The notes below the pieces were generated by a model that saw nothing but the letters and a program-made list of their open reading frames with translations, did no database searches and was not told the DNA's origin. This document shows, one piece after another, positions 1 to 16,645 of a stretch of DNA of 20,901 nucleotides; position 1 is the stretch's first letter, and every line of letters starts with the position of its first letter. Location: the NCBI GenBank assembly GCA_048498835.1, contig JBEHXF010000036.1, positions 1 to 20,901 on the forward strand, written 5' to 3'. This DNA is from Chlamydiota bacterium. Its GTDB lineage: Bacteria > Chlamydiota > Chlamydiia > Chlamydiales > SM23-39. The position numbers and the translations under genes were made by a program.

Positions 1-370
1 TAGCGGAGGGATGCCCTCCGCACCACCCAGAGCCCCCTTGTTTTTGCAGCGCAAAAACCCACCACGACTCAAATTTTTTTATCTAAGCGATATCCGTTTG
101 CTAGAATCTGCAGTTCCGACTTGGCCGAAGGGCAAGGCGCAGGCGAAATTTGTTTCCTCAAGCCCTAGCGAGAATCTCGAATCCTTTGAACGGCTTGAAG
201 GAAACTAATTTGGCTGAAAGCTTTTTGCGCAGCAAAAAGGAACTGCCTCTTATTGAGGTGCGGGGCTTCCCCGCCTCTGTGGTGGTCTATCTCTGTGGTG
301 AATTTTTATCCTGTCGCCGTTTCGGCGATCCTGCCCGCACGCTTCGTGCGGATCCTTGTTATTTCTTTTC
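1..370. repeat. Modular palindromic repeat (chain of short hairpins), inverted copy of part of the 12862-13217 element plus an extra ~170-bp segment; probably truncated by the window edge
   Basis: 1-47 and ~221-370 match the reverse complement of ~12885-13076 with few mismatches. Perfect stems with 3-nt loops at 3-21 (GCGGAGGG-ATG-CCCTCCGC), 40-58, 221-239, 260-274, 314-328 and 335-351. Confidence 0.85.
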
Positions 371-1951: not shown

Positions 1952-3050
1952 GCCAGACCAACACAGCTTTGATTTCATCAGCAGGCTTTTTTCCTAAAAC
2001 ATGGGCAAAATCTTCATGAGCAATTTTTGCGGTGATGAATTGTTCGATCACCCCTTTCCATTCATTTTGGGCAGCTTCTAGATCGACAACTGCTTGTTTA
2101 AAATGCTCTTTGCTGGCGTTGACGCTGCCAAAAATCACCTGATTTTTTAGGACGATTTGCCGCATCATCGCACTTCCATTAACGTTAAGGGGGTGATCGC
2201 CGCCCGGAACGCCTGTCATCGCATAAATCCCATCATTGCCCAGTTTTTCAATGAGATCGAAATCGAGTTTTGCCACTCCAGCTGCTTCCACGATCATGTG
2301 GATTTGTCCGTAGGTCGTCTCGATCTGTTTCCAGCCTTTATCGCTGCTCTGAATGTATTTTCCTCCCATCGCTTCTAAAATTTTAGGACGCGGTGTGTGG
2401 GGATCGACAATATCGAGTCCAATGACGCGAGCCCCTCTGAGGCGGAGCACCATTGCAGCAAGGAGGCCGATGGGGCCGAGGCCTGCAACGAGAACCGTTT
2501 TATTTTGCAGCCATTCTTTTGCATTTGATTCAAAGGGGAGTCTTGCCGCTTGGAGTCGGCAGGCATGATCGATCGCCTTTTCTACCACGGTTGTGGGTTC
2601 TGTAAGAACGCCGATGAGTCGCAGAGCGGGCGGAACTTTGATGCAGTATTTTTCTTCATCGACGATGTACTCTGCCTGGTAGCCATGCAGCCCTTTAATG
2701 CCTCTTTCGGTGTAATCACCGGTTCGGCACATGTCGGGATAGCCTTTTTTGCACGGATCGCATTGATTGCAACCTCGTCGCACCATGATGACGACAAGAT
2801 CTTTTGGCTTGAGCGTTTTTACCTCAGCGCCCACTTCCATCACCTCGGCGAGCACTTCATGGCCGATGATGAGGATTTTATCGCCCGGCGGCGCGTCTGC
2901 CCGTCCACCGTCAGCCTCTTCTCGATCCGTTCCGCAGATCCCGACTAATAGCGTTCGCACCTTCACTTGTGTCGGCGATTGAATGTTCGGCTCTGGCCAA
3001 TCGACGATGGTTATTTTTGTTGTTCCGGGAGTGAGTGCTAGCGCTTTCAT
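1944..3050 (-). CDS. Zn-dependent medium-chain dehydrogenase, glucose 1-dehydrogenase-like
   Basis: GICGTD and GHE catalytic Zn ligands, structural Zn cluster RRGCNQCDPC..C, YTERGIKGLHG, GLGPIG Rossmann motif and GSVNA near the C-terminus, all typical of the glucose-DH subfamily of MDRs. Confidence 0.85.
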   Translation of the reverse strand: MKALALTPGTTKITIVDWPEPNIQSPTQVKVRTLLVGICGTDREEADGGRADAPPGDKILIIGHEVLAEVMEVGAEVKTLKPKDLVVIMVRRGCNQCDPCKKGYPDMCRTGDYTERGIKGLHGYQAEYIVDEEKYCIKVPPALRLIGVLTEPTTVVEKAIDHACRLQAARLPFESNAKEWLQNKTVLVAGLGPIGLLAAMVLRLRGARVIGLDIVDPHTPRPKILEAMGGKYIQSSDKGWKQIETTYGQIHMIVEAAGVAKLDFDLIEKLGNDGIYAMTGVPGGDHPLNVNGSAMMRQIVLKNQVIFGSVNASKEHFKQAVVDLEAAQNEWKGVIEQFITAKIAHEDFAHVLGKKPADEIKAVLVWHA

Positions 3051-3175
3051 GAGAACCTTTTTAGGATCTCTTGTATCCCAACTAAAAAAGACTTTTCAAT
3101 AAATTTCTGCCTTGTGGACATAAAAATAATTTGGCTGCTACTGTTTTTAGAAGGTGTTCTGTAGTGAAAGATATT

Positions 3176-3274
3176 AATCACAGAGTGCACAGAGATGAAA
3201 GAGAGTCACACAGAGAAAAAATTCTCAATTTCTGCTCGGTGAAGCTTCTTTTTCTCTCTGTGAACTCTGTGATT
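3176..3274. repeat. Short inverted-repeat element (CACAGAG family, MITE-like), copy 1
   Basis: 20-bp terminal inverted repeat AATCACAGAGTGCACAGAGA / TCTCTGTGAACTCTGTGATT (1 mismatch). Its left ~55 bp is near-identical to 18783-18840. Confidence 0.85.
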
Positions 3275-3344
3275 GTATTTCTTCAGAACTACACAAAAAT
3301 TTGTCACAGAACATGCTCTAAGATCTGTAACCAGGGGTAAATAA

Positions 3345-3881
3345 ATGGTTCTATCAACTGATACCACAAAAGTTTGGGCAAAGGTTGTCGCGAAATGTTG
3401 GCAAGATGAGACATTTAAACGACAGGTGATAACAAACCCAAATCGGGCGTTAGAAGAACAGGGATTAAAGATTCCAACAGGCGTTCGATACAAGGTTATT
3501 GAAGAGAAAGGACAAGAGCGCCACACCTATATCGCTTTGCCTAAAAAGCCTCGATCCGCCGATTTGAATCGCCATTTGAAAGAACTGAATGTGGACTCTG
3601 GTTCTTCATTTGGGAAAATCTGGTCCAAAGTGATCGCCAAAAGTTGGCAGGAAGAGGGATTTAGAGCTAGGGTTATCGCTGAACCCGCGAAGGTACTCGC
3701 TGAGGCTGGATATACATTTGATCCAGCGACAAAATTTAAAGTGATTGAAGAAGAGAGCATCGAAGAGCATGCTATTCATCTCTCTTTGCCTGCGAAACCG
3801 CAGAAGAGTGATTTACGAGAAGAAGAATTAAGGCATCTATCGGGAGCCCTTTGTGCATCTTGCGGCGGTTGTGCCTGTTAA
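3345..3881 (+). CDS. RiPP precursor with two tandem NHLP (nitrile hydratase-like leader peptide) domains and a C-terminal Cys-rich core
   Basis: Two ~82-aa repeats (KVVAKCWQDETFKRQVITNP..L.E.G..KVIEE..LPKKP and KVIAKSWQEEGFRARVIAEP..L.E.G..KVIEE..LPAKP), then the leader end DLREEELRHLSG(A) and core LCASCGGCAC. Lies directly upstream of a YcaO cyclodehydratase. Confidence 0.9.
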   Translation: MVLSTDTTKVWAKVVAKCWQDETFKRQVITNPNRALEEQGLKIPTGVRYKVIEEKGQERHTYIALPKKPRSADLNRHLKELNVDSGSSFGKIWSKVIAKSWQEEGFRARVIAEPAKVLAEAGYTFDPATKFKVIEEESIEEHAIHLSLPAKPQKSDLREEELRHLSGALCASCGGCAC

Positions 3882-6039
3882 CTTGATCCGATTTAAGTCT
3901 TGTTATCACGTCGAAGACTTTGTCGATGAAGTGTTTCTTTTTTCCGAGAAGCAGACGCATCGTTTGCAGGGGAAACTATATGGTTTAGTTTCCCCCTTAT
4001 TAAAACAGGCAACGCTTTCGGAACAGGAGATCGTTGATCGATTAGCCGATCAAGCATTGCCTGAAGAGATTCACTATGCTTTACAAAGATTGGAAGCAGG
4101 CGGGTATCTTGAGCGGGTAGAAGAAGATCTCCCCCCTGGTTTTACCTCTTTTTGTCATTTGCTAGGAGTAGAGCCGGCACTTGCCCGAAAACGGCTACAG
4201 GCTTGCCATCTTTCTGTCCTAGGAATTGGCTCTGTAAACCTTCAACCTATTCTTTCCGCTCTTGAAGCTATAGGTCTTACTTTATCTTCAGAAAAAGGCG
4301 ACTTAACTTTGGTGGTAACAGATGATTATAGCCACCCTCAAATAGAAGCGCACCATCAGCAGCTCAAAGATAATCCGTGGATTTTGCTCAAGCCCAAAGG
4401 ATGTGAAATTTGGCTAGGACCTCTTTTTCAACCGGGGCAAGCTGGGTGTTGGGTCTGCCTCGATCATCACATCAAGCGGAATGATTTAGAACGCTCCTAT
4501 GTAAGAAAGAAAGGTGGGGCCCCTTTTTCTACTGCTATCTCCTCTTTTTCTGCGACCGAAGGGTTAGCCGCTCATTTTGCTGCGAGCGAGCTACTTAAAT
4601 GGATTGTGAAACCAGAAGCTTCCCTTCTAAATAAAAACCTCCTTTCTTTTGATGCTCTGCAAACCAAATTCCAAGAGCATCGCTTGCTTCCGCTCAGTAG
4701 CTGTAAACACTGTGGGAAAGAGAGCATGAGATCATTCCATCCTCCGGTTTTCAGCGGAAAGAAAAGGGGAATAAGTGATGGGGGATATCGAAGCCGCTCT
4801 GCGGAACAAACGTTGAAAAGCCTTTCGCCCTACATCAGCCCGATTTTAGGGGTTGTGAGTTCTCTACACGATTCGGCTTTAGACTCTTCTCTTCATGTGT
4901 ATTATGCAGGCAATAATTTTGCCGTGGCCAATTCTTTGGAAGGATTGGAGCCCGACGCTCTCCGCAGTCGCTGTAGCGGAAAAGGTCAGACAGAGGCGCA
5001 GGCTAAGGCGAGTTGTCTTTGCGAAGGGATTGAGCGGTATTCTGGAATCTTTCAGGGAGATGAGCCGAGAATCCGGGGAAGTTACCGAGAACTGAAGGGC
5101 AATGCGATTCAACCGAATGACATACAGCTCTTCAGCTCTCGGCAATTTAAAATCCGCGAAGAGTGGAATAGGGTTCATAAGAGATCTCATCGAGTTCCCA
5201 GGCTTTTTTCTGAATGCGAAGAAATAGAATGGTCGCCCGTCTGGTCTCTCACTGGCAAAGTTGTGAAATATCTTCCCACAGCTTTGTGTTACTATTCTTA
5301 TCCCGATCCCTCGCCACCTTGCTATGCCGATTCCAATGGAAATGCCGCGGGCAATTGTTTAGAAGAGGCGATCTTGCAAGGATTTTATGAGCTTGTCGAG
5401 AGAGATAGCGTAGCCATTTGGTGGTACAATAGAATCTTGAGAAATCGTGTCGATGTTCGAAGTTTTGCCGATCCCTATTTAGATCTGTTACTTGAAGAGT
5501 ATGCGGCGATTGGGAGAGACGTTTGGGTACTGGATATCACGAGCGATTTGCCCATTCCTACTTTCGTCGCACTTTCAAAAAGCGCTAAAGGGGAGATTCT
5601 CTTTGGTTTTGGGGCTCATCTCAATGCTTCGATCGCCCTTTCTCGCGCACTGACTGAAATGAATCAGTTCCTTCCTCTTCTAACAAAATTAAAACTCTCT
5701 GAAAACGATTGGCTTAAAATGGCAACCATAGAAAATCAGCCCTACCTTCGAGGCCATGAGAGGGAGCCAATGAAGGTGAAAGAGGACTATCCCAAGGTTG
5801 ATTGCGACGATCTTTTGAGATGCCAATCACTCGTTGAAGAGCGGGGAATGGAGATGTTGATCCTAGATCAAAGTCGCGATCCGATCGATTTGAAAGTAGT
5901 CAAGGTCATAGTTCCGGGACTCAGACATTTTTGGCCCCGTTTTGCACCCGGTCGCCTCTATGATGTGCCGGTAGCGATGGGATGGCTTAAAAAGCCGCTC
6001 CAAGAATCTGAACTCAACCCTATACCCATGTTTATTTAG
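3871..6039 (+). CDS. Fused TOMM/LAP cyclodehydratase (RRE + E1-like C domain + YcaO D domain)
   Basis: E1-like GPLFQPGQAGCWVC and CKHC; YcaO motifs SGKG..EAQAKASCLCEGIERY and DSNGNAAGNCLEEAILQGFYELVERD; Pro-rich C-terminus LNPIPMFI. Start is uncertain (TTG 3853 frame; GTG 3871 or TTG 3883 more plausible). Confidence 0.93.
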   Translation: MPVNLIRFKSCYHVEDFVDEVFLFSEKQTHRLQGKLYGLVSPLLKQATLSEQEIVDRLADQALPEEIHYALQRLEAGGYLERVEEDLPPGFTSFCHLLGVEPALARKRLQACHLSVLGIGSVNLQPILSALEAIGLTLSSEKGDLTLVVTDDYSHPQIEAHHQQLKDNPWILLKPKGCEIWLGPLFQPGQAGCWVCLDHHIKRNDLERSYVRKKGGAPFSTAISSFSATEGLAAHFAASELLKWIVKPEASLLNKNLLSFDALQTKFQEHRLLPLSSCKHCGKESMRSFHPPVFSGKKRGISDGGYRSRSAEQTLKSLSPYISPILGVVSSLHDSALDSSLHVYYAGNNFAVANSLEGLEPDALRSRCSGKGQTEAQAKASCLCEGIERYSGIFQGDEPRIRGSYRELKGNAIQPNDIQLFSSRQFKIREEWNRVHKRSHRVPRLFSECEEIEWSPVWSLTGKVVKYLPTALCYYSYPDPSPPCYADSNGNAAGNCLEEAILQGFYELVERDSVAIWWYNRILRNRVDVRSFADPYLDLLLEEYAAIGRDVWVLDITSDLPIPTFVALSKSAKGEILFGFGAHLNASIALSRALTEMNQFLPLLTKLKLSENDWLKMATIENQPYLRGHEREPMKVKEDYPKVDCDDLLRCQSLVEERGMEMLILDQSRDPIDLKVVKVIVPGLRHFWPRFAPGRLYDVPVAMGWLKKPLQESELNPIPMFI

Positions 6040-6041
6040 CT

Positions 6042-7256
6042 GTGCTTTTACAACTCAAACCAAATGCGCCTTTCGAAGCTTTAACCGATCATTGGTTTCA
6101 TAAGCTGATTGAGGTGGGTGAAGATCGGCTCATCTCGTTTTTTTATGGCTTAGAAAAATTAAAGACCTCTGGGTGGATCGATTACACCATTCCAGCTTAT
6201 TTAACGTTCATTCCCTTTTCTCCGTTTGAGAAAAAGCCACTGAACGAGACGAGCGCTTATCGCCTCTCTCGCTTTTGTTATACCCGTTTAGAGGGAGATA
6301 AAATCGTCTTAGAGTCTCCTCTTTTTTCTGGAAGGATTGAACTCATCGGGCCGATGGGAATATCTCTTTATTTCCGTCTTGCAAAACCTTGCTCCCTACT
6401 CGAATTAGTGGCCGAATTTCCAATGGCAAAAAGCTACATGGAATTATTGGTGTGGGGCCAGATGTTGGTGGAAGAAGAGGAGCTTTCTCAATGGGCTTTT
6501 CACGATCTTCTTTTCCACAGCAAGACTCGACTGGAAAGAGCGCCACCCGATTTTATGAAGCTCTATCCTTTTCAACAAGCTCCTCTACCTGTCGTTAAAT
6601 CGATCTCTAATCCGATCGAGATCATCTCTCTATTTAGACCTGATATCGAAGCATTAAAACGGAGTGACGTTTCCTTTACACAAGTTTTAGAGACCAGATC
6701 GTCTCAAAGAAAACAGGGCAAGACTCCTCTCACCATGGAGCAACTGGGAGAGTTTCTGTTTCGGACGGCGCGAATTCAAGCGCTCAAAGTCAATCAGTGT
6801 GAGCTTTCGGAGCGCCCTTATCCAAATGCAGGTGCGCTCTATGAACTGGAAATTTATCCTCTTATTCATAGTTGCGAGGGACTTTCTGCTGGCCTTTATC
6901 ATTACGATCCTCTCAACCATCGTTTGCTAAAACTAAGAGAGGGTGACTGGAGAACAGAGAGTTTGTTGAAACAAGCCCAGCTTTCAACTCAAAGCGACTC
7001 CTTTTCTCAAGTCCTTTTGATCATCGCTGCCCGTTTTCAGCGGGTGAGTTGGAAGTATCCAGTCTATTCCTATTCTCTCACGTTGAAAAATGTGGGCGTC
7101 TTGCTTCAGACGATGTACCTTGTCGCTACAGCAATGGGGCTCGCTCCTTGTGCGATTGGAAGGGGAGATGGTCGTCTGTTTTCTGAGCTAATCGGATCAA
7201 AAGATGGGGAAGAAACGAGTGTGGGAGAATTTATGTTAGGCTCGAGTGGCGAATGA
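6042..7256 (+). CDS. SagB/ThcOx-family FMN-dependent azoline dehydrogenase (nitroreductase fold) with N-terminal extension
   Basis: W.FHDLLFHS..R, VLETRSSQR, RPYPNAGALYELEIY, GLYHYDPLNHRL, RFQRVSWKY (Lys-Tyr pair) and LLQTMYLVATAMGLAPCAIG. GTG start 2 nt after the YcaO stop. Confidence 0.92.
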   Translation: MLLQLKPNAPFEALTDHWFHKLIEVGEDRLISFFYGLEKLKTSGWIDYTIPAYLTFIPFSPFEKKPLNETSAYRLSRFCYTRLEGDKIVLESPLFSGRIELIGPMGISLYFRLAKPCSLLELVAEFPMAKSYMELLVWGQMLVEEEELSQWAFHDLLFHSKTRLERAPPDFMKLYPFQQAPLPVVKSISNPIEIISLFRPDIEALKRSDVSFTQVLETRSSQRKQGKTPLTMEQLGEFLFRTARIQALKVNQCELSERPYPNAGALYELEIYPLIHSCEGLSAGLYHYDPLNHRLLKLREGDWRTESLLKQAQLSTQSDSFSQVLLIIAARFQRVSWKYPVYSYSLTLKNVGVLLQTMYLVATAMGLAPCAIGRGDGRLFSELIGSKDGEETSVGEFMLGSSGE

Positions 7257-8080
7257 GAAATTTAGGCATTGGCGTTGGATTGAGATCTGCGCATTACCGA
7301 GAAATTTTAGCGGAAAAGCCGCCGGTGGATTGGTTTGAGATCATCAGTGAAGATTACTTGAGTTTAGAGGGACAAAATTTTGATTTTCTTGAGAAAATAT
7401 TAGATCTTTATCCAGTGGTGCAACATGGAGTTTCTCTCCATATCGGGAGCGCTGATCCCCTCGATTTTGACTATTTAAGAAGATTGAAAAAATTAAGCCG
7501 AGTTACCAAAACGCCTTGGATTTCAGATCATCTCTCGTGGGGCAAAGTCGCAGGGGCTCATTACCACGATCTTCTTCCTCTGCCGTTTACAAAAGAGGTT
7601 GTTGCCTACGTCGCTGAGCGAGCGAGGATTGTGCAGGATTTTTTGGAACTTCCCTTTGCTCTTGAAAATGTCTCCTCGTACACCTCCTTTAAAGTGGATG
7701 AAATGGCCGAGTGGGAGTTTTATGGAGCTATTGTGGAGCGGGCAAACATTCATATGATGCTGGATGTCAATAACTTATATGTTTCATCGAAAAATCACGA
7801 CTTTTCCCCACAAGAGTACTATGAAAAGCTACCATTGGATCGAGTGATCCAGATCCATTTAGCGGGTCATAGAGACATGGGACTTTATCTTCTCGATACC
7901 CACGATGCTTTTGTCTCTGACCCTGTTTGGGAACTCTACGGTGAGATTTATCCAAAAACGAAAGGGGTATCGACGCTGTTGGAATGGGATGACCAATTTC
8001 TCAGTTTCGAGCGAACGTGGAAAGAGGCTCTGAAAGCAAAGCGATTTCAACAGCAGGTGGTGCATGAGACCGCCTCCTGA
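7253..8080 (+). CDS. DUF692 multinuclear non-heme iron-dependent oxidative enzyme (MNIO; MbnB/TglH/ChrH/BufB/HvfB family)
   Basis: GIGVGLR, WFEIISED, HGVSL, SDHLSW, LLPLP, LENVSSY, LDVNNLYV, QIHLAGH, LDTH and LLEWD motifs in order; 275 aa; ATGA overlap with the dehydrogenase stop. Confidence 0.95.
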   Translation: MRNLGIGVGLRSAHYREILAEKPPVDWFEIISEDYLSLEGQNFDFLEKILDLYPVVQHGVSLHIGSADPLDFDYLRRLKKLSRVTKTPWISDHLSWGKVAGAHYHDLLPLPFTKEVVAYVAERARIVQDFLELPFALENVSSYTSFKVDEMAEWEFYGAIVERANIHMMLDVNNLYVSSKNHDFSPQEYYEKLPLDRVIQIHLAGHRDMGLYLLDTHDAFVSDPVWELYGEIYPKTKGVSTLLEWDDQFLSFERTWKEALKAKRFQQQVVHETAS

Positions 8081-8828
8081 ACTTCTCTCATTGCAGAGCC
8101 AGTTTACGAAAGCTCTTTTAAGAGAGGACGAGACGGCGGATCTATGGCTCTGTGGAAGCCCTGGTTTGCCAGCCAAAAAGAGAATGGGGATTTATCGCGA
8201 GAGTTATCAAACGCGAATCATCCAATTTCTCTTGGCTCATTTTCCCCTTGCGTGCCGATTTTTGGGGCGAGAGCGGTTTTGCCAAGAGATTACGCTCCCA
8301 TATTTAAGCGATTGCTATTCTACCGACTGGCGCCTTGAGCAGTTTGCTTTTCATCTCGTTCTTTGGTTTGAAAAACGTGATCCCTTTCTTTTAAGTCTAT
8401 TGCAGGCTGATTTGCGTTGGCTGATGTGTTCGCTTGCAAAGCACGTGGTTTCTCCCATTCCCGATCTTTTTTCTACTCCACTCGCTTTGCAGCCTCACGC
8501 CTCTTTGATCCAGTTAGAGGGAGATCTGTTTCATCTCCGACTGGAAAGCGAGTGGAGGCCGCCTCGCGAGGGGATTTTTCAGTATCTCTTATTTAGGTCG
8601 AAAACGATGGCTGTCGTAGCGGCTCCCATCAGTGAAGTTTTTTATCACCTCCTGAATGAAAAGGGATGTTCTTGCAATGAGGCAATCACAAGATTAGAAG
8701 AGATCTATCCCTCTCTCGACTATGCTCTGCTCTATTATTCCATGGAGCGATTTAAAGACGCTTTTTTAGTGAGCACGAGTAGTGCAGCGATCCCAAAACA
8801 GATCGAGCCTACAATCAAAGAAATTTGA
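8064..8828 (+). CDS. DUF2063-type MNIO partner protein (putative precursor-recognition subunit, BufC/HvfC-like)
   Basis: L.SLQSQFTKAL..RMGIYRESY..R....L..HFP.....LG.ERF....PYL N-terminal pattern and LALQPH mid-region. Overlaps the DUF692 stop by 17 nt, the usual position for this partner. Confidence 0.82.
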   Translation: MRPPPELLSLQSQFTKALLREDETADLWLCGSPGLPAKKRMGIYRESYQTRIIQFLLAHFPLACRFLGRERFCQEITLPYLSDCYSTDWRLEQFAFHLVLWFEKRDPFLLSLLQADLRWLMCSLAKHVVSPIPDLFSTPLALQPHASLIQLEGDLFHLRLESEWRPPREGIFQYLLFRSKTMAVVAAPISEVFYHLLNEKGCSCNEAITRLEEIYPSLDYALLYYSMERFKDAFLVSTSSAAIPKQIEPTIKEI

Positions 8829-9952
8829 TTGGTCAATCCAAGCCACGGAGAGGTGATGACAATCGCAATCAAAAAGCCCAATGCTTGCAGCGATTGCATG
8901 ATTCCCATGACTTCTCCCTGGAGTTCTTTTTTCACGCTATTGGACGCAAAAGCGAGTGCTGTTGAGATAAATAGGGCGTAGAAAAATTCTTGAAAGGGGA
9001 TGACATACCAATTCAGTTTAGGGTTTTGAGTAAAGAGCAGTAAAAGAAGGGTTGTAGCGATGGCGAGTGAGCAAATTCCAAAGATCCATCCTACATGAAA
9101 GCGCCCGAGGAAGGGCTGAATCAAGATGCTGCTCGATAGGACAAACCAAATCGCCGCATAAGAATAAAAATCACCTACTTGATTAGGGTGAAGTCCGTAA
9201 CGTTCCAGCCAGTTCACCGGGATGAATTGCCAATAAGCCGACCACCCGATCAAAACGCTTAAAAAGATGATGAAAAAAATAAGCAGGTGAGCCCATTTAA
9301 ACAGAAGATCGATGCTTCGAAACATCGACGTGGGATTAAATTCCGTCTTCATTTCTACAGGGACTGGATCTTTAAAAAAGAGGGCGAGAAGAGCCATGTT
9401 GATGAGAACGAGGCAAAGCGCTAAGAGAAAAGGTTCGATGTATTTGCCATTTGCCGAGAGTTTTCCGCCAATAACGGGCCCGAGAGCAGCTCCGAGGCCG
9501 GCGGCTGTTGTGATCCAAGCGAAATTTCTCGCCTTTTTTTCAGGGGGGCTAATATCGCCGATTACAGCGTTTGCGATCGCTGCGCCAGTTGCTCCAACAC
9601 CACCGATCAGTCGCCCAGTGAGCAGGAGAAAGGGGTGGTCGAACCAGATCCCTGCAATAGCCAATCCATGACTGAGACAAATCACCGACAAAACAATGAG
9701 GAGCATCTCTTTGCGTCCCCAAAGGTCGGAAAAAAAACCGGCAAAGGGAGCTGAGAGAAAGGCGGTTATCGGAGCTGCAGCTAACAAAATGCCGAGCCAA
9801 AGCCCCCGCTTTTCAGCAGAGGCTGAGCCTGAGAGAAATTCTACACCTTGCTGAAAGGTGATGGAGGAAAAGATCGGAAAAACAATCCCGATGCTAAAGG
9901 TTGCAGTAGCTGCAATCAGAAAGAAAATAAAGAAAGTATGTTTGTGGTGCAT
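8735..9952 (-). CDS. MFS transporter, DHA1/TetA-like efflux family
   Basis: About 12 hydrophobic segments; motif A variant GFFSDLWGRK; GRLIGGVG; antiporter motif C-like GLGAALGPVIGG; ELQGEVMG near the C-terminus. Confidence 0.9.
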   Translation of the reverse strand: MHHKHTFFIFFLIAATATFSIGIVFPIFSSITFQQGVEFLSGSASAEKRGLWLGILLAAAPITAFLSAPFAGFFSDLWGRKEMLLIVLSVICLSHGLAIAGIWFDHPFLLLTGRLIGGVGATGAAIANAVIGDISPPEKKARNFAWITTAAGLGAALGPVIGGKLSANGKYIEPFLLALCLVLINMALLALFFKDPVPVEMKTEFNPTSMFRSIDLLFKWAHLLIFFIIFLSVLIGWSAYWQFIPVNWLERYGLHPNQVGDFYSYAAIWFVLSSSILIQPFLGRFHVGWIFGICSLAIATTLLLLLFTQNPKLNWYVIPFQEFFYALFISTALAFASNSVKKELQGEVMGIMQSLQALGFLIAIVITSPWLGLTNQISLIVGSICFGIAALLVLTKKASLNRSME

Positions 9953-10273: not shown

Positions 10274-10690
10274 TCAATTCTTTAAAAATGGCTTCATCGT
10301 ATCCGCAAAGTCGGCTAACTCTAAGTTTGTCCATTCGCGAGTCAGCTCTAAGTGTCGAGTCTCTTTTTCTCCTCTGCTTTGAGCTTTTTTAAAGGCCAAA
10401 CGGTGAAGTCTCTTTAATTCGACTGTAGCTTTTTTTATCTGGTGTTTAGAAACTCCAGATGAAATGCGTTCTCGCCAATTTTGAATGATCTGCTCAATTC
10501 GATTGGTGCTTGCGTGCTTTTTTTTCAAGATTGATGCGGTGGATAGTGGATGATCTTTTGGAGTGCGAATCGGATTGCAGAAATAATAGGGGGTAGTAAC
10601 TGTAGATTCCGGCGTAGGAGGCATCTCCAGAAGTTCTGATGTTGGTGAAGAGGGAATGGAATTTCCTGAAGAGATAGATTTAACTGACAT
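10274..10690 (-). CDS. Hypothetical protein with Ser/Pro/Thr-rich N-terminus and basic helical C-terminus
   Basis: ATG preceded by AAGGTG; fills the intergenic space; starts MSVKSISSGNSIPSSPTS; no known domain recognised. Confidence 0.65.
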   Translation of the reverse strand: MSVKSISSGNSIPSSPTSELLEMPPTPESTVTTPYYFCNPIRTPKDHPLSTASILKKKHASTNRIEQIIQNWRERISSGVSKHQIKKATVELKRLHRLAFKKAQSRGEKETRHLELTREWTNLELADFADTMKPFLKN

Positions 10691-12808: not shown

Positions 12809-12861
12809 GGTGCGATTGTAAAAGAGCGGCGCGTAATAGAAAAGAGGAGTCTCGTGTGCAA

Positions 12862-13217
12862 TTCACCACAGAGGAGACAAAGAAGAAAAGAGAAATAACA
12901 AGGATCCGCACGAAACGCGCGGGCAGGATCGCCGCAAAGCGGCGACAGGATAAAAATTCACCACAGAGATAGACAACCACAGAGGCGGGGAGACCCCGCA
13001 CCCCAAAGAGAAGTAGTTCCTTTTGCTGCGCAAAAACAAGGAGGCTCTGAGTGGTGCGGAGTGCATCCCTCCACTATCCTGTCGCCGTTTCGGCGATCCT
13101 GCCCGGCGCTTCGCCGGATCTTTGTTCCTTCTCTTTTTTTGGGGTGCGGGGCTTCCCCGCCTCTGTGGTGGTCTATCTCTGTGGTGAAATTCTCTTCTTT
13201 GTGTCCTCTGTGATGAA
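12862..13217. repeat. 356-bp composite palindromic element with terminal inverted repeats
   Basis: TIR TTCACCACAGAGGAGACAAAGAAGA vs reverse complement of the end, TTCATCACAGAGGACACAAAGAAGA (2 mismatches in 25). Internal inverted modules ~12902-12952/13075-13120 and ~12955-13005/13138-13190. Shares sequence with 1-370. Confidence 0.88.
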
Positions 13218-13234
13218 CCGCCCACGATCGCTTG

Positions 13235-15539: not shown

Positions 15540-16034
15540 ATGTCTACCCCACCTATTTCTGCACCCGCGCCACTACCGCCACCCGTTCCACAACCTGCAG
15601 CGCCTCCTGCTCCTGGCTATTTTGAAACGGCAGCCAAGGCAGTTTGGGCTTACGTTAGATCTATTTTTGAGGCGATTGCCAAGTTTTTTGGTTGCGCGAG
15701 CGAACCTGTAGAAAAACCTGAAAAGGCGATCTTGGCCAGGCTAAATGAGGGTCTGTATTCAGGTCCAAGCCTTCTCTTTCTCTTCAAACAATACTTTCAA
15801 GAAGAAGAGCAGGTTGTGGTCTATCGATTTGAGGGGCAACAGCTCAATCAACGAGAACCATTGCAAAACGAGCCGCGTGGGTGGTTTAGCTCAGCTCCTG
15901 CTGAAAAGACATTGCAACAACAGCTTGAAGAAACTGTTCAAAGGGGAGAACACGCCGTCTTCAATGATCCAAAAATTTTAATCCCTTATCTTTCTGATCG
16001 ACTCAGCCAATTATTAATGAAAGGAACGGCATGA
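15540..16034 (+). CDS. Hypothetical protein with proline-rich N-terminus
   Basis: AGGAG upstream; starts MSTPPISAPAPLPPPVPQPAAPP followed by an amphipathic helix; ATGA overlap with the next ORF. Confidence 0.7.
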   Translation: MSTPPISAPAPLPPPVPQPAAPPAPGYFETAAKAVWAYVRSIFEAIAKFFGCASEPVEKPEKAILARLNEGLYSGPSLLFLFKQYFQEEEQVVVYRFEGQQLNQREPLQNEPRGWFSSAPAEKTLQQQLEETVQRGEHAVFNDPKILIPYLSDRLSQLLMKGTA

Positions 16035-16645
16035 ATCGAGTTCCAAATTTATTTCCACCATCTATACAGGTCCCGAATTTTGCATTTCCACCCAATGGAT
16101 CACCTCCTCTAGTTCAAAGAGTTGAATCTGTACGAGATGGTTTATTTCCTAGCTTTGCATATGGAGTACCTCTTCAATTAGATCGATCTCCCGAATTAGA
16201 TCGATCTAAACTGAGAAATCTCGAGTATCTCTCCTCCCATCCATCACATCGCCCTGAGGATCAAAATTTTTCTGCTCTATTTGAACTTTATTCACAGGCA
16301 GTGATGGAAAATCCAACTTTACTTGCACTGAGAGGAGATGAGCTGTCCAGAAGAAATGAAAATATTCCAGCTATCCTCAATTATGATTTAGCTTTAAAAT
16401 TGGATAGGAATTGCCTAAGAGCTCTCATGGGGAAAGCAGTTGCTTTGCTCTTATTAAACGACAAGTTCGAAGATTTGCTGGAGGCTCAAAAGCTAATGAA
16501 TTCGTATGAAGTCATTGCAGTGGAATATCGATGCCAGGGAAGTGCTGCGGTACGAGAAATTAATCAATTAATTGAGCAAAAAATAATGGAAAGAATTCAG
16601 GCTCATACAGGTGTGAACTCGCAGAGCGAAATGAGTATACCGTGA
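16031..16645 (+). CDS. Hypothetical protein with a TPR-like region
   Basis: LALRGDELSRRNENIPAILNYDLALKLDRNCLRALMGKAVAL fits a TPR consensus; translationally coupled to the upstream ORF; its stop codon lies inside the downstream MITE. Confidence 0.65.
   Translation: MNRVPNLFPPSIQVPNFAFPPNGSPPLVQRVESVRDGLFPSFAYGVPLQLDRSPELDRSKLRNLEYLSSHPSHRPEDQNFSALFELYSQAVMENPTLLALRGDELSRRNENIPAILNYDLALKLDRNCLRALMGKAVALLLLNDKFEDLLEAQKLMNSYEVIAVEYRCQGSAAVREINQLIEQKIMERIQAHTGVNSQSEMSIP

Follow-up and report, generated by a model that had tools for sequence, protein, structure and literature searches.

Two NHLP modules, one leader tail: a duplicated precursor in a chlamydial YcaO/MNIO cluster that may act as a single interlocked leader

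Why does a precursor with a core peptide of ten residues carry two leader modules? The question is raised by a gene at 3345..3881 (+ strand) of the window, by which we mean the whole 20,901-nucleotide stretch of chlamydial DNA analyzed here. Its 178-residue product consists of two NHLP modules, one leader tail and a 10-residue core. The protein matches the NHLP profile and carries the leader tail, but it has two modules where one of about 80 residues is the norm. A preliminary description of the locus suggested that each leader recruits a different enzyme set, or that the pair mimics an NHLP dimer in cis. We favor a form of the second idea, and consider it reasonably likely that the two modules are interlocked and act as a single leader.

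Module 1 (3354..3551, + strand; residues 4-69) contains helices 1-3, strands 1-2 and an LPxxP motif, and module 2 (3603..3800, + strand; residues 87-152) has its LPxxP at 148-152. The two halves of the precursor share 32 of 79 aligned residues (41%, E 3e-21), with a local alignment score of 163 against 24.6 +/- 4.6 (maximum 53) in 2000 shuffles. The whole protein scores 102.5 bits in two stretches against TIGR03793 (cut-off 50.9); half 1 alone scores 60.4, and half 2 alone, at 46.3, falls below the cut-off. Its two modules are the only TIGR03793 matches in the source genome, G000. These alignments, shuffles and paired profile matches bear out the proposal of a tandem-duplicated NHLP leader, including the two matches expected from an HMM scan, and the estimate that leader makes up some 94% of the protein also holds, as 168 of 178 residues lie ahead of the core. 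The gene contains no module-level exact DNA repeat. A purine-rich, Shine-Dalgarno-like element (AGGGG) lies about 8 nt upstream of it, no sigma-70-like promoter was found at 3000-4000 of the window, and a 48-nt imperfect inverted repeat occupies 3176-3274, just 5' of the gene.

The precursor gene heads a tightly coupled run of genes for modifying enzymes. A fused RRE/E1-like/YcaO cyclodehydratase (3883..6039, + strand; probable TTG start at 3883, longest frame from 3853) has its motifs present and matches PF02624, PF21084, TIGR03604 (247 > 219 bits) and TIGR03882 (109 > 37 bits). It is followed by a SagB/ThcOx-type azoline dehydrogenase (6042..7256, + strand; TIGR03605, 166 > 78 bits; PF22767 and PF00881), so that an RRE-fused YcaO and a SagB stand beside the precursor as in TOMM/azole clusters. 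Next come an MNIO (DUF692) protein (7253..8080, + strand; PF05114, 326 bits) with intact metal-ligand motifs, which resembles bufferin BufB (298.8 against the NF050167 cut-off of 310), and a DUF2063 MNIO partner protein (8064..8828, + strand; PF09836, above cut-off). A convergent MFS transporter gene (8735..9952, - strand; PF07690) overlaps the last by 94 nt and is missing from the orthologous cluster described below. Horizontal acquisition of the cluster is suggested by the GC content of 3345-9952, 45-47% against 49-51% in the flanks, and by the YcaO, whose nearest grouping is with YcaO proteins from another family. Elsewhere in the window, three ORFs at 15540-16645 and 10274-10690 have no significant Pfam match, two of them with Pro-rich N-termini that could be secreted, and similar intergenic sequence at 1-430 and 12810-13230 is perhaps a dispersed repeat element.

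We found one orthologous cluster, L099/L100 in a Simkania MAG. It encodes a double precursor, a methyltransferase, YcaO, SagB, MNIO, DUF2063, a divergent C39 export trio and a JmjC gene, and its enzymes are 52% (YcaO), 47% (SagB), 69% (MNIO) and 31% (DUF2063) identical to those of the window. Precursor module 1 matches its ortholog at 31 of 62 residues, as does module 2 (31/62); the linker at residues 70-89 retains 6 of 20, and third codon positions agree at 37-44%. Both modules are conserved at a level near that of YcaO and SagB while the linker is not, and both are thus under selection.

The two halves differ in their ends. The L(X)4L element of NHLP leaders is placed at -12 to -7 in PMC10858898. 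In the second tail (3801..3848, + strand; residues 153-168), Leu157 is at -12, Leu162 at -7 and Leu165 at -4, and G167-A168 complete an S-G-A cleavage-type site; this is the only canonical leader tail. The first (3552..3602, + strand; residues 70-86) has Arg76 at -12 and Asp84 at -4, is without L(X)4L at -12/-7, and fails both the strict and the loose tail pattern. Both copies had been described as ending in ELxxxSG. The strings are indeed there (E80-G86 and E161-G167), but only the second is a canonical leader end, and the precursor does not contain the two complete recognition sequences expected of a hybrid leader. AlphaFold2 (AF2) models the first tail as a well-ordered linker helix (residues 71-81) and the second as less ordered. 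A read-through fusion carrying a second core was rejected, as no core follows the first tail.

The same asymmetry extends across relatives. Searching 1.84 billion representatives with the two-module query gave 1636 matches, and the best 150 were classified as 89 two-module, 2 three-module and 4 four-module (95 multi-module) and 55 single-module proteins; because they are ranked by likeness to a two-module query, these counts show abundance, not frequency. The NHase metal motif occurs in none of the best 150. With the query itself, the 89 make up a set of 90 two-module proteins, likewise ranked by likeness to the query. Of the 90 two-module proteins, 2 show the strict tail pattern in the first module and 56 in the second; among the 55 single-module proteins in the best 150 of 1636, 38 have it.

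Other elements imply that the modules depend on one another structurally. The helix-1 Trp is kept in 77 of 90 first modules against 53 of 90 second modules (discordant 33 vs 9, p 3e-4), and hPxxP after strand 2 in 42 of 90 first against 69 of 90 second modules. Across the 90 proteins, Trp in module 1 goes with PxxP in module 2 (67/10 vs 2/11, p 5e-7) and Trp in module 2 with PxxP in module 1 (34/19 vs 8/29, p 9e-5), while pairs within a module show no association (p 0.13 and 0.8). Thinning to below 40% identity (39 proteins) leaves the cross-module pairs associated (p 8e-4 and 3e-3) and the same-module pairs not (p 0.65 and 0.48). Shared ancestry alone is an unlikely cause, because in the 90 proteins Trp is not associated with Trp across modules, nor Pro with Pro. 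The strongest covariation between strand blocks is also cross-module (z 4.7 and 4.9); it was reached in 0 of 200 permutations, and 2 of 56 other blocks are as high.

The predicted fold is consistent with this coupling. In nitrile hydratase (NHase) alpha, strands pair across the repeats. The AF2 model of the precursor (pLDDT 88, pTM 0.78) has NHase alpha chains as its best fold matches (131 residues, Z 7.5, rmsd 4.7-6.5); this Z lies below 8, within the range of common arrangements, and the VIA ranges (1..151, 3..171) are ambiguous. Single-module MprE7 superposes on the model over only 50 columns (rmsd 1.6), about the helix 1-strand 1 extent that PMC10858898 gives for the part shared by MprE7 and NHase. 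A single-sequence model of residues 46-152 is weak (pLDDT 62), and its strand assignment, which fits cross pairing, is not counted as proof. Judged by covariation and fold matches rather than by model coordinates, the most likely arrangement of the modules is an interlocked pseudo-dimer that has a single tail. The suggested NHLP dimer in cis thus gains support from the cross-module covariation and from a model that superposes on both NHase alpha halves.

We propose the following sequence of events. Tandem duplication of a single NHLP leader would have given rise to the gene, and the first tail would then have decayed to a helix that links the modules. In each module, helix 1 and strand 1 are predicted to pack on strand 2 and PxxP of its partner, an arrangement that would rebuild the two-repeat body of NHase alpha, minus its metal loop, and make the protein a single larger leader whose one tail is of the L(X)4L/Gly-Ala type. 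YcaO needs NHLP helix 1 and L(X)4L (PMC12455567), exactly the pair that the outer half of the precursor supplies. This outer half (module-1 helix 1, module-2 strand 2 and the tail) is intact in 67 of the 90 two-module proteins, the inner half in 34, and both in 24, the window precursor among them; since both composite halves are intact, a second docking face exists here. The YcaO RRE would dock on the tail and on one helix-1 face, across the family mostly that of module 1. Module 1 is unlikely to be the docking helix in every case, because the ortholog has Met in module 1 at the position of MprE7 Ala14, where a bulky residue lowered YcaO turnover (PMC12455567). YcaO and SagB may then convert some core Cys/Ser to azoles, and MNIO/DUF2063 may oxidize one more Cys, probably that of the S-C-x-G motif, on the same leader in turn. 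The duplication, the decay of the first tail, the selection on both modules, the covariation pattern, the distribution and the gene content are the observed parts of this best explanation.

One could extend the idea further. NHLP leaders would have a second, strand-exchanged state, and repeated tandem duplication would rebuild the NHase-alpha body as a rigid scaffold that bears a single tail and a pair of docking helices; in the window precursor, where both faces are kept, YcaO and the newly recruited MNIO/DUF2063 might sit on opposite faces and yield a product with both azoles and thiooxazoles. We regard this extension as unlikely as a whole.

The core (3849..3878, + strand; residues 169-178) has 4 Cys and 1 Ser, with S-C-x-G at S172-G175. 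This motif occurs in the NHLP cores of the window, L100 and L129, and 7 of 7 precursors from stand-alone MNIO operons have it as well, although it was spotted post hoc and those precursors were chosen by hand. Among 95 chlamydial NHLP cores that were scored, 1 has it, that of the window itself (L100 and L129 are outside the 95), and it is missing from small ORFs beside MNIO in L054, L061 and L064. S-C-x-G in the core may be what targets the MNIO. Chlamydial MNIOs that accompany Cys/Gly precursors with signal peptides share 60-70% identity with the window MNIO. There is no Sec-signal precursor ORF beside it, and seven chlamydial bufferin-like precursors gave no tblastn match below E 0.2 in G000. 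We infer that the MNIO/DUF2063 pair came from a bufferin-like operon whose precursor was left behind. Stand-alone operons of MNIO, DUF2063 and a Cys/Gly-rich precursor with a signal peptide are present in many chlamydial genomes (L052-L066, L130); these precursors are bufferin-like and score below the curated precursor cut-off. By analogy, the product is likely a short, heterocycle-rich, metal-binding peptide, metal binding being the best guess because bufferin chemistry turns Cys into thiooxazole and goes along with copper binding (10.1101/2024.03.18.585515).

Alternatively, the product could be the whole modified protein, in which the interlocked pair of modules would be a stable carrier and its uncut oxidized Cys tail would bind copper or another metal in the cell like a cytoplasmic bufferin. 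No C39 peptidase was matched in G000 (97% complete) and no NHLM exporter lies in the window; the MNIO is BufB-like, and bufferins are described as folded protein metallophores (10.1101/2024.03.18.585515). A full-length NHLP-type precursor has also been seen in cells for Os1348 (PMC12636437). However, G000 is an assembly of 88 contigs, the orthologous cluster carries a C39 exporter trio, and the window tail is still canonical, and we think a whole-protein product improbable. It is compatible with the interlocked fold and concerns the product only.

Could each module instead serve its own enzymes? Engineered chimeric leaders exist, and one of the two ideas in the preliminary description was a natural hybrid leader. 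On this reading, module 2 and the tail would serve the YcaO RRE and module 1 would be a handle for MNIO/DUF2063. That the window MNIO has no precursor of its own agrees with this reading, and so does the window DUF2063, which by alignment has diverged from chlamydial stand-alone partners and has changed an otherwise conserved N-terminal motif. Both helix-1 faces are intact as well. Mapped through the 8TB1 alignment they are K9/A12/K13/A16/W19 and K91/S94/K95/A98/W101, but their residue types match each other and those of chlamydial single leaders, with no specialization seen. Module 1 also has no recognition tail, and the modules appear interlocked.

The link between doubling and a second enzyme set was assessed in 18 RRE-YcaO clusters from chlamydiae that have an NHLP gene alongside; L050 (truncated YcaO), L113 and L117-L122 (no NHLP seen beside) and short-YcaO loci were left out, and L049, L109 and L114 in the comparison end near a contig edge. 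Double precursors occur in 2 of 2 clusters with MNIO vs 1 of 16 without (Fisher p 0.02). However, the two MNIO clusters, window and L100, are orthologs (tree support 99 for YcaO, 94 for MNIO), and with the orthologs counted once p is 0.12. The MNIO nearest to this pair (support 88), that of L129, adjoins a single-module NHLP. An MNIO domain is also reported to act on a single NHLP-type precursor (PMC12636437). L112 combines YcaO and LanM with three single leaders, and L040 has a double precursor with YcaO/SagB only. G010 and G244 have doubles with no modifying enzyme nearby; G010, like G282, has no MNIO match, and in G244 the MNIO operon includes a separate precursor. In all, 14 of 16 chlamydial double genes are without an MNIO operon of their own cluster. 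Given the counter-examples L112, L129, L040, G010 and G244, a cluster with two enzyme sets does not require two modules, and two modules do not require two enzyme sets. Doubles in single-system clusters had been named in advance as what would speak against a hybrid leader, and in a qualitative sense they exist (L040, and the enzyme-less G010 and G244). With the first tail not intact, the helix-1 faces alike and doubles present where there is no second system, separate recruitment by each leader is quite unlikely.

Doubling is not confined to this cluster. Of 30 proteins looked up, multi-module NHLPs were named in Simkania, Syntrophomonas, Verrucomicrobiae, Trichodesmium and Usitatibacter, across five named phyla. 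Proteins with three or four modules include P0006, P0007, P0009, P0015, P0026 and P0035; P0015, from a Trichodesmium cluster, and P0035 terminate in cores rich in Arg and Trp. The locus of protein P0004 was looked for and not found. Within the order, 46 of 400 genomes carry an NHLP match, and the loci examined among them, selected for long open frames and near relationship, gave doubles in G000, G282 (1), G010 (5, in tandem by an exporter) and G244 (8, dispersed). None of the five two-stretch or long-frame matches followed up in 301 genomes from an unrelated phylum was a double: four were NHases and one a single NHLP. Six of the eight loci from the genome scan were true NHase alpha or single NHLPs. 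A word-indexed homolog search returned the precursor itself only, tblastn against plasmids gave 4 records, of which the one with 84% cover is an array of single genes, and the ESM Atlas gave NHLP clusters below 0.9 only.

Several chlamydial loci are worth describing in their own right. The five tandem two-module genes of G010 (L032, 8654-11973; G010:C46) have long Ser/Gly/Thr-rich tails, are divergent from a C39 ABC/HlyD/TolC exporter and adjoin a GNAT gene. The eight dispersed two-module genes of G244:C1 (L033-L039) mostly have Cys-free, hydrophobic or polar tails, have lost the helix-1 Trp, and for the most part have no modifying enzyme nearby. In L129 (6622-12088; G007:C6), a Cys-core single-module NHLP is divergent from a 341-residue orphan, MNIO, DUF2063 and SDR genes and is followed by genes for a 207-residue orphan and a radical SAM enzyme. 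This makes a second type of NHLP+MNIO cluster. Proteins of about 340 residues (L129, 8580-9605; homologs in L157, L159, L161, L163, L168 and L170) adjoin chlamydial NHLP genes, have no Pfam or NCBIfam match and are probably an uncatalogued modifying enzyme. The closest single-module relatives, in L152, lack Cys in their cores, and the contig ends before any enzyme gene.

By the YcaO and module trees, doubling arose repeatedly. In the module tree, built on 62 columns and with many forks open, a single clade (support 97) unites both modules of the window and of L100 with single-module relatives, apart from other chlamydial doubles; the YcaO of L040 falls in a different clade from that of the window, and the first module is closest to its own second module in 19 of the 90 two-module proteins. 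Such recurrence would also fit an extra module that is a tolerated passenger of repeated fusion or slippage, perhaps stabilizing, with no role in enzyme binding: NHLP genes are often in tandem arrays, 15 of the 18 related YcaO clusters function on single leaders, and fused pairs have been reported (PMC2887384). We rate this reading as very unlikely, for module 1 is conserved like module 2 and the enzymes whereas the linker is not, the docking Trp is best kept in module 1 across the family, and the cross-module covariation implies structural dependence.

An interlocked leader would have consequences beyond this locus. It offers a testable structural rule for RiPP precursors with two to four NHLP modules and one tail, and connects NHLP leaders with the repeat inside nitrile hydratase alpha. 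If the first and the last module each supply part of the recognition elements, leader-deletion and leader-swap experiments would be misread. Multi-module NHLPs also risk annotation as NHase, which is the annotation that the ortholog precursor carries. Fused NHLP-Burk pairs in Delftia and Acidovorax were reported in 2010 by Haft, Basu and Mitchell (PMC2887384), yet the multi-module class, though widespread, is barely described: literature searches for double or tandem NHLP leaders retrieved no paper, and the portion of PMC12537861 covered does not mention tandem leaders. A gene cluster pairing a ring-forming YcaO enzyme with an MNIO iron oxidase is apparently undescribed. In the literature listings and papers covered we found no description of a YcaO+MNIO NHLP cluster, and the main text of an MNIO survey (PMC12452194) has neither NHLP nor YcaO clusters, although its supplements could list them. 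The cluster provides a compact test of how two chemistries that modify Cys, that of YcaO/SagB and that of a bufferin-type MNIO, compete for the four Cys of one 10-residue core.

Known systems each share part of this architecture. The NHLP-Burk pairs (TIGR03795), as presented in PMC2887384, likewise put two NHLP-clan units in one polypeptide with a cyclodehydratase neighbor and C-terminal Cys. They differ in an insert of about 15 residues before PxxP, the lack of a double-Gly motif and a kinase neighbor, whereas the window precursor has a loop insert of 2-3 residues, a canonical tail and no kinase among the flanking genes scanned; they were interpreted there as giving a two-peptide product, not an interlocked fold. 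The precursor reaches 43.6 against TIGR03795 (cut-off 41) only as the sum of two stretches (halves 22.1 and 25.4), and on the insert, double-Gly and kinase features we rejected membership. NHase alpha (TIGR01323; PDB 4OB1, 2DPP, 1V29) has two repeats of the same module, is the best match of the predicted fold and aligns in two sequence stretches. It has a CxxCSC metal loop and a beta subunit, neither of which is seen here, and only the precursor has a leader tail and core. At 46.9 bits against a cut-off of 249.85 and with the metal site missing, a degenerate NHase was rejected, and because the modules group with single chlamydial NHLPs, the doubling is a re-duplication.

Os1348/PflA/PosA (PMC7726476, PMC12636437; PDB 6LK7) resemble the window system in that an NHLP-clan precursor is modified by an MNIO-containing enzyme. 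Unlike it, as far as these sources were covered, they have a single module, an all-helical dimer, no double-Gly site, an HEXXH partner, no YcaO, and an MNIO fused to a nitroreductase that acts on Asp. The crystallized Os1348 homodimer (PMC7726476) is a precedent for a dimer, though the monomer seen by SAXS for MprE7 speaks otherwise. BufABC bufferins (10.1101/2024.03.18.585515; NF050167) share the MNIO, the DUF2063 partner and a Cys-rich substrate. Their precursor has a Sec signal, whereas here the substrate is an NHLP precursor common to YcaO/SagB, and the MNIO falls just under the BufB cut-off. The MprE/MprC/MprD proteusin system (PMC12455567, PMC10858898; PDB 8TB1) differs in that MprE7 is described with one module and an antiparallel strand 1-strand 2 hairpin, against two modules predicted to interlock here, and in that the text covered reports no MNIO, against the MNIO/DUF2063 pair of the window. 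Like the window cluster, it joins an NHLP leader to an RRE-fused YcaO, a flavin dehydrogenase and a Cys core, and the helix-1 residues and L(X)4L of MprE map across to the window precursor.
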